Part shown: positions 13,733 through 55,340 of the stretch, piece by piece
Position numbering within the stretch: position 1 is the stretch's first letter
Layout of the letters: each line of letters begins with the position of its first letter
Assembly: GCA_965242585.1 (NCBI GenBank)
Contig: OZ251460.1
Location: 2,574,692 to 2,638,691, forward strand
Source of the DNA: Limisphaerales bacterium
Lineage (GTDB): Bacteria > Verrucomicrobiota > Verrucomicrobiia > Limisphaerales > AAA164-E04
Length of the DNA: 64,000 bases
Direction: 5' to 3'
Made by a program: the position numbers and the translations under genes
Notes under the pieces: generated by a model
The model's input: only the letters and a program-made list of their open reading frames with translations
Databases searched by the model: none
Told to the model about the DNA's origin: nothing

Positions 13733-14524
13733 TTACGTTCGCTTGGCGTGGCAGATGGAACAGCGAAAATGACGCGTATTTCTGGGGATTGGGTTGTGGC
13801 GAACAAAGATTCGGGAGCAGTAATCGCAGGTGTAAACGTAGTTTCCGGCGATGATTTCCGCCAGGCGGTCTTGGAGGTAAAAAGGCGGAATGCGAAACTC
13901 AAAGTTGGTTAACGAGAACGCAGTGTGCCGATGTTCGGCGCGCAGTTCTTCGGGATGGGTTGTGGCGACGAAAACATTGCGGGTGTATTCGGAATGCGCA
14001 ATGCGAACGGCGGGCAAAATATCGGCGTCTCCGGTGATAATGCAATGATAGTCGTTTGGCTGCGTGATGGCGAAGCGGATGAGCAGCGCGACGACCGTTG
14101 TGTCCACTTGCTTCTCGTGATAGGCGTTTTGCATCAACCCTTGCAGAATCCAGGGGCGAAGATCAGGCCGCAACACTGCCGAGCCGGAGTATCCCGCATT
14201 CATGGCCGCCTCCACAAACTGATTGCGGGCATGGACGACTCGGCGGAAGTGTTCCAAGTGCTTGGGGCGGATGTTGTTTTCCAAAGCCGGCCAATTGTCC
14301 AGATCCTCGGGCAAGGTAAAAATAGAGGTCGCTATGTAGCGGACGCCCAAACTCTTGCAAGCGCCGTCGTGTCCGCAAACGTGCCGCAAGAGAGATTGAT
14401 CCAAACGAGCAAAGTCCAACCGAACAGATGTATCCGGATGTTCGGTTTTGTCCGCCAGAACATGATCCGGGGCCGCCACCTTGAACAGCCACGAGCCGTC
14501 AATAAAGACATTGATTTTCGACAT
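13733..14524 (-). CDS. NYN-domain (LabA/PIN-like) nuclease with C-terminal zinc ribbon
   Basis: MSKINVFIDGSWLF, EKQVDTTVV and ITGDADILPAV are the acidic NYN motifs. The C-terminus YTCDYCSRIF...HFRCSICHAKRT is CxxC...CxxC. The start is set at ATG 14524. Confidence 0.75.
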   Translation of the reverse strand: MSKINVFIDGSWLFKVAAPDHVLADKTEHPDTSVRLDFARLDQSLLRHVCGHDGACKSLGVRYIATSIFTLPEDLDNWPALENNIRPKHLEHFRRVVHARNQFVEAAMNAGYSGSAVLRPDLRPWILQGLMQNAYHEKQVDTTVVALLIRFAITQPNDYHCIITGDADILPAVRIAHSEYTRNVFVATTHPEELRAEHRHTAFSLTNFEFRIPPFYLQDRLAEIIAGNYVYTCDYCSRIFVRHNPIPRNTRHFRCSICHAKRT

Positions 14525-14878
14525 AAGCGATAATTGCTCAACGCTTCGGCGCAATGGCCGGCAGGCATAATTCCTTACCTTGTCGGCACGAAAAAGCAAG
14601 GCGAAATTTTCAAACATCGATCCTCTTCCCGCTTTCTTTTGGTTGGCCTTTTGGCGGAATTTCTTTTCATTGGGCGCCGTTTTTACCTTTTTCTAACCCT
14701 CGACAACTTCGCGTCAAAGATCAACAATTGGAGACCCGGCATATGCAAAGAAAACAAGAGCGACGCTATCGGGAAGAGCGGAAGCGCAATCCCGCGTTCA
14801 AAGAGGGGAAACGCGAACGCCAAGCGCAAGGAACGCAGAAAATCTGGCCAAACTTAAGAACAAGCAGAAGCCGCTAAT

Positions 14879-15652
14879 TCAAAGTTCTAGGGTTTGTCGT
14901 CGTTTCTTCTTTTGTTGCTGGCGATGAAAGAAGACGAAACCCAGGGCAAAGAGGCCGAAGATGAGGGCGTATTCTTCGGGTTCGGGGATGACTTGGCTGT
15001 TGACGACAACCCGAATCGAGCCTTCAGAACTCGCCGTGAACACGGGGGATGAAGCGTTGGCACGGAAGGTTCCCGCAAAGAAGTCGCCGATGGGTTTGTT
15101 GATGATGCCGGAACCCACCCAAGAAAAAGATGCTCCGCTGATATAAGAGAGAGCGGCGCTCCCAGAAACGCGAATCCCCATGTCATCTGCACCGCCGCTA
15201 TCCTCATCCAGAAAAAGATGGGAAATAGTTCGGTTGACGGAGGGGATGGACGGCGTGTTGGTGGCAGTGGCGGCAAAGGTGATGTTGGTTCGGCCGCCGC
15301 CCGGAATTCTGGCTCTCACCGAAGCGATGTCTGTCGGATTGCTGGAACTGGAAAACAAGGGAGAAAGTTGAAAGTTGGTATCGCTGGGCTTGTTAGCGTC
15401 GAAAATGTTTCCGTTATTATCGGAGGTCGAGATTTGCCAAGAGTCTTGATCCGCGTAAGTATTAGAGCCTGAGCCTGTTCGGATGCTGTTGTTGGCAGTC
15501 GTAGTGGAGGAGCCGCTAAAAATCCAGATGGTTTGGTTGTTGTTGTCTTGGCTGGGATAGATGTGGAGGTACAACTGCGCGTTCGCTACCCCCCCCCCCC
15601 CCCCCCCGCAAAGGCAGACGACGGCCACTAAGAAAAATAATTTTCGGTTCAT
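14879..15652 (-). CDS. PEP-CTERM sorting-domain surface protein (cassette A) with a Gly6 stretch encoded by a poly-G tract
   Basis: Signal peptide MNRKLFFLVAVVCLCGGGGGGVANAQ. The C-terminus VIPEPEEYALIFGLFALGFVFFHRQQQKKKRR is a PEP-CTERM anchor. The start is set at ATG 15652, because the track's upstream extension is leader sequence. Confidence 0.8.
   Translation of the reverse strand: MNRKLFFLVAVVCLCGGGGGGVANAQLYLHIYPSQDNNNQTIWIFSGSSTTTANNSIRTGSGSNTYADQDSWQISTSDNNGNIFDANKPSDTNFQLSPLFSSSSNPTDIASVRARIPGGGRTNITFAATATNTPSIPSVNRTISHLFLDEDSGGADDMGIRVSGSAALSYISGASFSWVGSGIINKPIGDFFAGTFRANASSPVFTASSEGSIRVVVNSQVIPEPEEYALIFGLFALGFVFFHRQQQKKKRRQTLEL
15589..15607. repeat. Homopolymeric tract C19 (G19 on the coding strand)
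   Basis: Counted from the sequence and cross-checked against the track translation (six Gly codons plus the G of GTA). Confidence 0.85.
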
Positions 15653-16340
15653 AAATATCGGTAATTTAAAAAGTTCGCTTTGTTTATTATCCTCTCCAAA
15701 GAAAAGAGTCAAGCACCAAAAAGCAAAAAAAGGAAAAAAGTTCAAAAAAAAGTTCGTTGGAAAACGACAAAAACCGACAAAAAGAGCGAAAGAGAGCGCC
15801 ATCCCGCCTTGGCCGATGACGAAGTTCTGCTTGACCGGTTGCCGATCGCGGAGGAGGAATCCCGGGAAGGCGACAGCGGCGAGCCGCCAGCCATTGCCTT
15901 GGCCAAGAAAGCGCATCCTCCCACCTTCCCATTGCGGGAAGAAAGAAGAAAGTCTTGGTGGCAGGCGAGTGCTTTGGGGAGGACTCTGAATTCAGAAGGA
16001 CGCATTGAAGGAGACAGCAAAACAACGAAATCCGCCAACAAGCGCGCCCTCCATCCCGCCTTGTCGGTCGCGAAAAGGAAAGTTTTTGCGGTGGTTGGAG
16101 GTCAAGCGGTGAGTGGATTCGTTTGATGGAGGATGAGCGGTTGCCGCTCGTTGTGGCTGTGATTTCTTTCTTCAACAACCAAGCATTGAGCAGAATTCGC
16201 TTGGTGGATTAGCGGGCAAAAAGAGCTTGTGTCGGGAGTTGCTTGCCGGTTTGCGCATTCTCTGGCTTTTGGGTGCTGGAAGGAATTTTCTTTGGATCTG
16301 CCGGGTTGAGGCTTCTTTTGGATTGGCCCCATCGGATAAG
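15653..16340 (-). repeat. Leader copy A of the duplicated PEP-CTERM cassette (patchy homology to 53935..54612, inverted)
   Basis: By-eye alignment of the reverse complement. Shared blocks include TTATCCGATG.GG..AATCCAAAAGAAGC..CAACCC, GAATGCGCA.ACC, CTTGGTTGTTGAAGAAAGAAATCAC, CATCAAACGAATCCAC and CGGCCAAGGCGG...CGCTCTTTTT...TTTCCAAC.A..TTTTT...GCTTGAC. Confidence 0.7.
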
Positions 16341-17057: not shown

Positions 17058-17144
17058 GTGTTTTTGAAATTGGGGCGATCAGGTGTGGACTTGATTGTCT
17101 GTGGTTGAGACGGTAGACGGCGGTTTGTTTTTTTTTTTTCAAAA

Positions 17145-17714
17145 GTGGAAACAAAGGCAAAGGTTGGATTCAGCGAGGCGGCGGGGCGCAGCGCGGGGTT
17201 GGTTCTGCTGATGTTTGGGATCGAGCTGGCGGACTCGTTGCTGGATGGGGATTTGGAGCGGTTTGGGATTCGTCCGTGGGAGTTTGTCGGTTTGTCCGGC
17301 GTTATTTTTGCCCCTTTGCTTCACGGAGATTGGACTCATTTAGCGGCCAACGGGCCGCCGCTGTTTGCGCTGTTGCTCATTCTCTTTTGGAATCCTCGCT
17401 ATTTACCGGGGCGCAGTTTGTTTTTGATTTGGGCGCTTGGAGGGTTGGGAACTTGGTTGATCGGGCGGGGCGACGCCGTTCACATCGGCGCCAGTTTGCT
17501 TGTCTTCGGTTTGATCAGTTATTTGATCGTGGCCGCGGTTTGGATGCGGTGTTGGCGGGCGCTGTTTTTTTCCATCGCCGTTTTTGTGTACTTCGTATTG
17601 TTCGGAGGGTTTTTCGGCGGCTTGTTTCCCGTGGAGCAGCGAGTGTCGTGGGAGGGACATTTGAGCGGCGCGGTGGCTGGTTTTTGGACGGCTTGGATCA
17701 ATCACAAACGGTAA
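17145..17714 (+). CDS. Rhomboid-family intramembrane serine protease
   Basis: 189 aa, polytopic. It has the catalytic-Ser context HIGASLLVFGLISY (GxSx) and the His context HLSGAVAGFW. GTG start. Confidence 0.8.
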   Translation: METKAKVGFSEAAGRSAGLVLLMFGIELADSLLDGDLERFGIRPWEFVGLSGVIFAPLLHGDWTHLAANGPPLFALLLILFWNPRYLPGRSLFLIWALGGLGTWLIGRGDAVHIGASLLVFGLISYLIVAAVWMRCWRALFFSIAVFVYFVLFGGFFGGLFPVEQRVSWEGHLSGAVAGFWTAWINHKR

Positions 17715-46120: not shown

Positions 46121-46407
46121 GGTCAGCGCGAGGACGGTGAGGACGCTCTTCCCAAAGGCGTCTTGGTTGGTTTGGCCAAAAGCCGAGTTCGTCTGATGTC
46201 TGATGCTTCATAAAACAATGCAATTGATTTTACTTTCAATTAACAAAACACCGCTCGGCAGGATTCGTGTCACGATTTCTTTCTTTTTTTTGTTTTGCTT
46301 GAGTCAGACGGTGCGGCAAAGTTGGGGAAATTCCACAGATTGTCAAGCATAAAGGCGCGGTTTTGAAAAGCGGTTTTGAATTTTGGAGCTTGGGTTATTG
46401 GGCGTAG

Positions 46408-46968
46408 ATGGATTTGGGGTTGGCGCTGGATGAAGAGTTTTCGATCTCAGACGAGCGGGCGAGGGAATTGCTGGCACGGATTGCTGCGATGGGATGTGAA
46501 TCGGCCTTTTCTGACTTTGGTGGCGGCTTACGGGCAGGATATGCGTCGTATATTGGCGGCGCGCGTGCTGGACGAATCGGAACTAGAATTGGAGGAGCAA
46601 GAGTTTTGGTCCAAGGTGGTTCAACACGCCGGAAAGTATGTCGAGGGTAGTCCGGTGAAGCATTGGCTGGCGGTGATTGCTAGGAATCAGGCATTGAACG
46701 CGCAACGGAGGCTAAATAATCGGATGAAGGTGGTGTTGTTCCGAGCGGAGATGGCGTCGAGGATGCGGGACGATAAAGAAGATGATGATTTAGAGCGGTC
46801 AGAAGATCGCGCAGCACGGTTAATCTTCCGCCATTATATCGAGGGCGCATCATACAAGCAAATGGAGGCGGAAGAACATACACCTACTCCAATATGCGCA
46901 CTCTGGTAAGCCGCGCCATCGCTTCTATACGGCAGATTCTCATCAATGTGTATGGGAGGGGGGGGTAG
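46408..46968 (+). pseudogene. ECF-type sigma-70 factor gene interrupted by two frameshifts
   Basis: Region-2-like pieces are SDERARELLARIAAMGCESAFSDF (frame 1) and VAAYGQDMRRILAARVLDESELELEEQEFWSKV...HWLAVIARNQALNAQRR (frame 2). The region-4 pieces are RLIFRHYIEGASYKQM (frame 2) and SNMRTLVSRAIASIRQIL (frame 1, ending at TAG 46966-46968). Confidence 0.55.
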
Positions 46969-54612: not shown

Positions 54613-55340
54613 ATGAAGATTCAAAAATATTTGAACGCTAGGAACCCGAAGTTGTCAAAATTCGGGCATCGGCAATCAGTCTGTTCTCAATCAGTCTGTT
54701 CTCAATCAGTCTGTTCTCAATCAGTCTGTTCTCAATCAGTCTGTTCTCAATCAGTCTGCTCTCAATCAGTCTGCTCTCAATCAGTCTGCTCTCAATCAGT
54801 CTGCTCTTGTAGCGGCGTTAGTGGTGTCGGCGCTCTCTTTGGTTGCTGTAGAGCAGAGCCAAGCGCAGTTGTATTTGGACATCTTTCCTTCCCAAGACAA
54901 CACCAATAACACGCTCTGGATCTTTAGCGGCTCCTCCACTGCCCGAGCGCATAGCAATGCCGGCCCTTGGATTCGCCGAAGTGGTGCTTATGACCGCAAA
55001 GACACCCACAAAACCAGCCAAGCCTTGTTACGCTCCGGCTCCGGCCTCCACGCCTTGACGCCGCTGTTCACGGCCAGCGTCACCAACGCGCCGTTAGACT
55101 TCGAGTCTCTGCGAACGCGGCTGGGGCAAACCATCAAGCTGGGAACCACCAACACCCTCGACGACATCACCATTCCCAGCACCGCTACCAACACGCCAAC
55201 CATCACCTTCACCGGACGGGGCAGCCGAACCAAAAGAATATGCCCTCGTCTTCGCCTTGGTTGCCCTCGGTTTTGTCTTCTTCCACCGCCATTGGCAAAA
55301 GAAACAACGCCAACAACAACATTCCACCCCCGCTTCGTAG
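54613..55340 (+). pseudogene. PEP-CTERM surface-protein paralogue (cassette B) split over three reading frames
   Basis: ATG 54613 is followed by a basic n-region and (QSVCS)9 in frame 1. The h-region and mature part, LVAALVVSALSLVAVEQSQAQLYLDIFPSQDNTNNTLWIFSGSS..., are in frame 2. The anchor AAEPKEYALVFALVALGFVFFHRHWQKKQRQQQ* is in frame 3 and ends at 55340. The N-terminal 25 mature residues and the anchor are clearly homologous to 14879..15652. Confidence 0.6.
54673..54807 (+). repeat. 15-bp tandem repeat x9 (CAATCAGTCTGTTCT x5 then CAATCAGTCTGCTCT x4)
   Basis: Read directly from the sequence. The track ORF 54613..54909 translates it as nine QSVCS units. Confidence 0.95.

Follow-up and report, generated by a model that had tools for sequence, protein, structure and literature searches.

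A run of 19 G nucleotides lies in the predicted signal-peptide coding region of the gene for a 257 aa PEP-CTERM-like surface protein, P0001, in the 64,000 nt stretch of DNA analysed here (the window; Limisphaerales bacterium, GenBank assembly GCA_965242585.1, contig OZ251460.1, positions 2,574,692 to 2,638,691). Judged from sequence comparisons, this G19 tract is probably a contingency switch that turns translation of the surface protein ON or OFF by slipped-strand mispairing. An initial annotation of the window had put forward such a switch, and the proposal has gained support from the truncation caused by a 1 nt change, from the tracts found in paralogues of the gene, from differences in tract length and from the intact state of copies that are out of frame (OFF).

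During replication, the homopolymer would gain or lose one G. With 19, 16 or 22 G, the ATG and the signal peptide would be in frame with a beta-sandwich and a PEP-CTERM anchor, and the product would be exported and sorted; with 18 or 20 G, translation would end at residue 21 or 45, and the protein would not be made. The P0001 gene would be one unit of a large switchboard, in which about 63 of the 83 readable paralogues own a separate repeat. As about a fifth of the repeat-bearing members are in frame in the assembled consensus, a cell lineage would show a small, changeable subset of the repertoire. We infer a high and reversible rate of length change within the population, expression that follows the reading frame, and a benefit that lies in varying the surface to counter phage, predators or a host.

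The G19 tract and the P0001 protein

On the plus strand the tract reads C19 and is at positions 15589-15607 of the window (G000:C1:2590280-2590298 in the coordinates of the source genome, which are also used below for loci outside the window). The P0001 gene is on the minus strand (14879-15652, stop codon included), where the context of the tract is GTC TGC CTT TGC, then 19 G, then TA GCG AAC GCG CAG. The tract makes up codons 16-22 of the 257-codon open reading frame (ORF), encoding Gly16 to Gly21 and the first base of Val22, and its repeat unit is not a multiple of three. Sequence and translation confirmed the earlier description of a 19 nt tract that encodes Gly6 between the hydrophobic core and a predicted ANA|Q cleavage site and is in frame (ON) in the consensus. 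When other lengths were simulated, G16 and G22 remained in frame and gave the full-length protein, as does G19. In contrast, G18 gave a 21 aa product, with a TAG directly 3′ of the tract, and G17 and G20 gave products of 44-45 aa (45 aa for G20), as expected from the earlier claim that a change of one nucleotide would terminate the protein.

Runs of 19 or more are expected by chance about 5e-5 times in 4.5 Mb (an arithmetic estimate with G at ~26 %), and occurrence by chance is therefore excluded. Selection for six Gly residues does not explain six GGG codons in a row either, because GGG is a minor Gly codon, with a share of 14.9 % among the Gly codons of 754 long ORFs, and the probability of six consecutive GGG is ~1e-5.

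The predicted signal peptide (residues 1-25; window 15578-15652, minus strand) was read from the sequence and from conservation among the paralogues. It comprises an n-region, MNRK, an h-region, LFFLVAVVCLC, the Gly6 stretch and a c-region, VANA, with putative cleavage before Q26. The putative junction fits the AxA rule, A-x-A|Q-L is conserved and Q26 is invariant across the paralogues. The N-terminus reads MNRKLFFLVAVVCLC-GGGGGG-VANAQLYLHIYPSQ... or, in a longer quotation, MNRKLFFLVAVVCLC-GGGGGG-VANAQLYLHIYPSQDN.... A longer open frame of 345 aa begins at 15916, but it exists only because an upstream stop codon happens to be absent, and the paralogues all begin at the equivalent of the ATG at 15652. 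A reading of the CLC before the tract as part of a lipoprotein signal was considered and rejected, as inspection by eye found a canonical lipobox at -3 to -1 of neither Cys.

The C-terminal sorting signal (14879-14986, minus strand) consists of a PEP motif, a hydrophobic helix and a basic cluster (PEPEEYALIFGLFALGFVFFHRQQQKKKRRQ...), followed by the stop codon. In the C-terminal residues, IPEPEEYALIFGLFALGFVFFHRQQQKKKRRQ, P-E-P is followed by the hydrophobic helix and then by the terminal basic cluster, and the end of the protein can be quoted as ...IPEPEEYALIFGLFALGFVFFHRQQQKKKRRQTLEL or as ...VIPEPEEYALIFGLFALGFVFFHRQQQKKKRRQTLEL. The P-E-P is invariant in 25 paralogues, and mature residues 200-231 are predicted to form a helix. 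The TIGR02595 model aligns at the correct place, but with 12.7 bits against a cut-off of 16, and P0001 is for this reason termed PEP-CTERM-like. Profile searches of P0001 also gave weak matches to NF033554 and NF038126 and did not report PF07589. Two exosortase genes, with PF09721 matches of 143-144 bits and both frames intact, are present in the genome.

Nothing above the cut-off was found in Pfam or NCBIfam for P0001 or the 25 paralogues, and the 264 relatives recovered among 5.8 billion proteins include none that is named and none with a Pfam domain. An AlphaFold model (25 paralogues; pLDDT 84.7, pTM 0.75) predicts a beta-sandwich followed by a single C-terminal helix. A Foldseek search with this model against the PDB gave no match at E <= 0.001 (best E = 0.07, TM <= 0.23); the insignificant matches include Cnm/CNA-type adhesin domains, and no fold relationship is claimed. 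A candidate promoter, TTGACT-N17-TAATAA (15684-15712, minus strand), identified by eye only, ends 31 nt upstream of the ATG. A scan for consensus promoters upstream of the gene called no promoter, but the TTGACT-N17-TAnnAA layout is also found upstream of homologues on independent ENA scaffolds.

Leader repeats in the paralogue family and long G/C runs in the genome

The family that includes P0001 has about 100 loci in the source genome (tblastn), all without annotation. At least 65 matches were found in each of two sister genomes, G001 (OZ242022.1) and G009 (OZ241891.1), both chromosome-level and listed as 'MAG: Limisphaerales bacterium' (MAG, metagenome-assembled genome), and the family is essentially absent from 38 other relatives. 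A total of 83 members were anchored on the motif Q-L-x-I-x-V-Y-P-S-Q at the mature N-terminus, and the 150 nt upstream were inspected. A repeat was present in the leader-peptide coding region of 63 of these 83 readable members, and at least two further members have long arrays just beyond the 150 nt limit of the search. The repeat is a run of 8 or more G or C nucleotides in 42 members, tandem 8 nt units (GGCAAGCG, GACAAGCG or CAATCGGT) in 14, 7 nt units (CACGCAT, TCGGGCA or GAACTGC) in five and longer units in two. Homologous tracts at the same site span 8-24 nt across dozens of paralogues, and the runs take three forms. In the first, which includes that of the P0001 gene, poly-G follows the hydrophobic core ('..CLC') and precedes the cleavage site; the second is poly-C located four to sixteen codons past the ATG, and the third is poly-G within the n-region. 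The leader peptides encoded by the repeats vary between members (Gly, Pro or mixed), and the common feature is therefore a frame-shifting DNA repeat and not a Gly linker.

Tract length differs in 35 of the 46 tract pairs for which the 400+400 nt flanks are at least 99.5 % identical, and copies with 100 % identical flanks differ. Because homopolymer calls can be wrong, the 7 and 8 nt units were also checked. Between identical flanks, the locus at 94376 has two GGCAAGCG units and that at 1782861 has three, corresponding to OFF and ON, respectively. The loci at 1176411 and 1468280 have 13 and 9 GAACTGC units, and those at 2904839 and 3043458 have two and four units. These differences in copy number are evidence that is independent of the sequencing technology. 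Near-identical pairs in the sister genomes also differ, as G10/G11, G14/G15, G21/G27 or C19/C20, or in the number of heptamers.

A comparison of tract length in related genomes had been proposed as a check on the switch, and the length does vary. The positional orthologue of the P0001 gene in G009, locus L041, has G21 at the same codon position and is in frame in its own context, and L042, a near-twin of L041, has G27. Two independent metagenome scaffolds in the ENA, ERZ23495663 and ERZ23495738, have G12 and G17, respectively, with the same leader and the upstream TTGACT motif. L041 shares the downstream neighbour of the P0001 gene, with 87 % nucleotide identity over 1282 bp (window 13737-14991) and 89-92 % identity for the protein. 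However, the family gene itself is only ~69 % identical between the window and L041. It thus appears to diverge faster, and either evolves much faster than its neighbour or was exchanged. The neighbour is a 294 aa gene (window 13733-14617, minus strand) that corresponds to 3973-4923 of L041, with ~90 % amino acid identity.

ON and OFF states were scored from ATG starts upstream of the repeat, anchored on the conserved mature N-terminus. Among the 41 homopolymer members with an identifiable ATG, eight, including the P0001 gene, are in frame and the other 33 are not. The loci at 1488370 and 1503275, with G13 and G8, are among the OFF copies. The mature ORF is intact, defined as 205-260 aa with a PEP C-terminus, in 28 of the 33. 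For the 8 nt units, two members are in frame and 12 are out of frame, all 12 of them intact; for the 7 nt units one member is in frame and four are out of frame, three of them intact. For the mature domains, the median pairwise ratio of non-synonymous to synonymous substitution (dN/dS) is 0.47 among OFF-OFF pairs, compared with 0.44 among ON-ON pairs, with all pairs below 1, though these values are approximate because dS (~1.15) is near saturation. As most OFF copies are intact and have dN/dS values like those of the ON copies, they appear to be functional genes under purifying selection rather than pseudogenes.

Long G/C runs are not confined to the family. The source genome (4.53 Mb, 52.4 % GC) includes 118 G/C runs of 9 nt or more, reaching 24 nt. 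The counts fall about five-fold with each added base up to a length of 8 nt and are then flat, at 3-11 per base and length, for lengths of 9-14 nt. A/T runs end at 10-12 nt and show no long tail. Runs of G/C of 10 nt or more number 100 in the source genome and 68 and 89 in the sister species that have the family, but only 13 and 6 in two genus-mates that do not. Of the tracts of at least 9 nt, 44 % are at the 5′ end of an ORF, compared with 10 % of random sites, and 23 % are inside long ORFs, compared with 52 % of random sites. The share at 5′ ends is an undercount, because G19 itself was classed as internal via the accidental open frame upstream.

There are 74 tracts outside the family, and the ORFs downstream of them were run against Pfam. 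In at least six genes for prepilin-type N-methylation/DUF1559 proteins the tract is immediately before the GFTLIELL motif. By eye, the leader peptide carries a 10-16 nt tract in seven such genes (G000:C1: 327314, 652365, 1603257, 2432367, 3039816, 3700212 and 3544858). Two DNA methyltransferase genes (PF01555, N6_N4_Mtase), one as a fusion with an HNH nuclease, have poly-C at the 5′ end (C16 at G000:C1:502962-502977 and C17 at 3347164-3347180) and are candidate phase-variable methyltransferases (phasevarions). The gene for a Laminin_G_3 protein has G15 between the signal core and the cleavage site, and a second PEP-CTERM-like family also bears tracts. Further tract-bearing genes encode a collagen-repeat protein, two giant proteins with leucine-rich repeats and Calx-beta domains, two cadherin-like giants and one capsule-synthesis protein. 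By analogy with known phase-variable species, this set of genes is the usual contingency-gene repertoire.

Alternative readings and known systems

The tract could instead be a fixed poly-Gly spacer or the product of a neutral bias towards G/C runs, with slow drift, OFF paralogues that are dead or dying pseudogenes and no reversible switching of consequence. Genuine decay is found in part of the family, as 14 of the 83 anchored members have a truncated mature ORF and the second paralogue in the window (locus 2629548) is broken. In addition, the in-frame variants G16, G19 and G22 alter only the number of Gly residues, and several exact duplicates have equal tracts, e.g. G16/G16, G13/G13 and G12/G12. 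However, most OFF homopolymer members (28/33) and every OFF 8-mer member (12/12) keep a full-length ORF, and OFF copies have the same dN/dS as ON copies, with all values below 1. A spacer would account neither for the use of GGG, a minor Gly codon, nor for the poly-C (poly-Pro) or the 7 and 8 nt units in other members, which share no common peptide. Likewise, a neutral bias does not fit with tracts concentrated at the 5′ ends of surface and restriction-modification genes or with A/T runs that are not expanded. We consider this explanation unlikely.

A second possibility is that the tract acts at the level of RNA, with slippage by RNA polymerase or ribosomal frameshifting mixing the frames, such that expression is graded and low and there is no heritable binary switch. 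Transcriptional slippage is known to occur on long homopolymers, and for gonococcal opa genes expressed in E. coli a work listed among the references of PMC3960869 reports frameshifting beside slipped-strand mispairing. Copies that are mostly out of frame and yet conserved would also fit constant leaky expression. However, this leaves unexplained both the 7 and 8 nt arrays at the same position, which are not equally prone to slippage by RNA polymerase, and the difference in repeat number between identical copies, and the TAG directly after G18 leaves little room for recoding. Action at the RNA level is thus quite improbable.

It is very improbable that the tract or its length is an artefact of assembly or sequencing. 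Homopolymers this long are hard for every platform, and the source genome is a MAG consensus. However, the tract is embedded in unique sequence, and tracts are found again at the homologous codon position in all three separate chromosome-level assemblies and on the independent ENA scaffolds. In addition, rpoB, rpoC, dnaE, mutS and mutL (~19 kb in total) are without a frame break, indicating that the assembly is not full of random indels. On the sequence evidence, the existence of the tract is secure, and its exact length alone is open to error.

Several observations count against a slipped-strand switch or limit the case for it. MutS and MutL are intact, unlike in Campylobacter and Helicobacter, where mismatch repair has been lost. 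The length of 19 is a MAG consensus call that may be off by one, which makes the ON state of the P0001 gene uncertain, and the ON/OFF tallies for the homopolymer members are uncertain as all three genomes are MAG consensus assemblies. At random, one third of the members would be in frame, and the proportion observed (8/41) differs from this only weakly (binomial P = 0.04). Because the type-A tracts have a common descent, the paralogues are not independent observations. The near-saturated dS noted above is a further limit.

To our knowledge, the switching of surface proteins between ON and OFF by repeats has been described almost exclusively in host-adapted pathogens, such as Neisseria, Haemophilus, Campylobacter, Helicobacter and the mycoplasmas. 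In Neisseria opa genes, CTCTT repeats are in the leader-peptide region and their number sets the frame by slipped-strand mispairing; the copies switch independently, and cells express none, one or several of them (PMC3960869). The opa genes of Neisseria gonorrhoeae and N. meningitidis thus resemble the family described here in forming a surface multigene family in which each copy has its own repeat in the leader region. However, there are 3-12 opa copies compared with ~83-100 loci here, ~63 of them repeat-bearing, and a single pentamer compared with poly-G, poly-C and several 7 and 8 nt units. Opa is also a beta-barrel outer-membrane protein of a human pathogen, whereas the protein here belongs to an uncultured Verrucomicrobium and is a predicted beta-sandwich that bears a PEP-CTERM-type anchor. 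No sequence or fold similarity to Opa or PilC was found in Pfam, NCBIfam or the Foldseek search of the PDB, and the resemblance to both systems, as far as these comparisons go, is mechanistic only.

Neisseria pilC, as Jonsson et al. reportedly described in EMBO J in 1991, has poly-G in the signal-peptide coding region and is turned ON and OFF by frameshifting. The location of the G run in pilC1 and pilC2 is thus like that of G19, but there are two pilC genes with ~10-13 G, encoding a pilus-tip adhesin, and here dozens of genes with up to 24-27 G, whose product and sorting system are different. Campylobacter jejuni and Helicobacter pylori have an excess of long G/C runs in surface, capsule and restriction-modification genes, and H. 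pylori also has CT repeats in the signal-peptide regions of omp (outer membrane protein) genes. Their sets of phase-variable genes are comparable to the present case in the genome-wide excess of G/C runs in surface and restriction-modification genes. However, these species have small AT-rich genomes with ~30 loci and are without MutS/MutL-type repair, while the genome examined here is 4.5 Mb with 52 % GC, intact mutS and mutL, and the 118 G/C runs of at least 9 nt. The two N6_N4_Mtase genes with 5′ C16 and C17 recall the phasevarion mod genes of Haemophilus, Neisseria and Helicobacter, a likeness that concerns loci other than G19.

A literature search for precedents in the Verrucomicrobia found only a remark on Akkermansia muciniphila, in which homopolymers of >8 bp are present in 17 genes, including two capsule genes, and phase variation was suggested speculatively (PMC3048395). 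Those tracts are short (G8, C10), and are without a gene family or placement in a signal peptide. In the literature searched, no switch in a PEP-CTERM protein was found, and 'PEP-CTERM' and 'phase-variable' occurred together only for invertons. By these comparisons, the slipped-strand switch proposed for G19 would be of a known kind but unusual in its scale, phylum and sorting system. It would place the strategy of the pathogens in an uncultured Verrucomicrobium, on a far larger scale per gene family and on proteins sorted by an exosortase-type system.

A broader reading, on which we are evenly divided, is that this is the largest single-family switchboard yet described, with ~63 independently switchable paralogues and at least four repeat types, in addition to the tract-bearing genes for pseudopilins, for giant leucine-rich-repeat, cadherin and collagen-like adhesins, for capsule synthesis and for the two DNA methyltransferases, and that a possibly sponge-associated member of the Limisphaerales with intact mismatch repair continually redraws its coat from a silent repertoire. 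Contingency loci would then be a major strategy outside the classical pathogens, in the PVC (Planctomycetes-Verrucomicrobia-Chlamydiae) superphylum. If G19 and its counterparts are switches, stochastic variation of the coat would be of importance to environmental or symbiotic bacteria, where it would probably counter phage, grazers or phagocytosis by a host. Many 'frameshifted pseudogenes' of such MAGs would then turn out to be OFF-phase genes. This would be a warning to annotators, as gene calls and pseudogene counts would depend on homopolymer lengths that assemblies report poorly.

Other repeats in the window and the genome

The second family member in the window (locus 2629548) is at 54673-55316 (G000:C1:2629364-2630007). 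Its leader has no homopolymer but about nine copies of a 15 nt unit (CAATCAGTCTGTTCT / ...GCTCT), which preserves the frame because it is five codons long. The mature ORF is truncated to 161 aa and the gene looks broken. In several subfamilies, a motif, TTGACAAACG(C/T)(C/T)GG, is conserved ~100-130 nt before the ATG (upstream of G000:C1 77857, 104873, 1155364, 1475320 and others) and may be a common promoter or operator of the family.

A 1.85 kb cassette is present in about eight copies that are 99.7-100 % identical (G000:C1:4009374-4011230; also at 843656, 2738069, 2744886, 2892173, 3272857, 3326152 and 4174666). It encodes a secreted 208 aa protein and a pseudopilin-like 300 aa protein. An insertion sequence was considered and rejected, as the cassette does not encode a transposase. 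A tract of G8-12 is ~60 nt upstream of the first ATG, and its length varies between the copies.

Two further runs were noted in the window. A T12 run (17128-17139), one of only two in the genome, is between a 75 aa membrane ORF and a 189 aa membrane ORF that starts at 17145, and may be a promoter or untranslated-region tract. A G8 run (46958-46965) lies shortly beyond the end of a sigma-factor-like ORF (46376-46909) and belongs to a three-copy repeat in which the 400 nt flanks are 100 % identical; the other copies (G000:C1:2500715 and 2958368) have G9.

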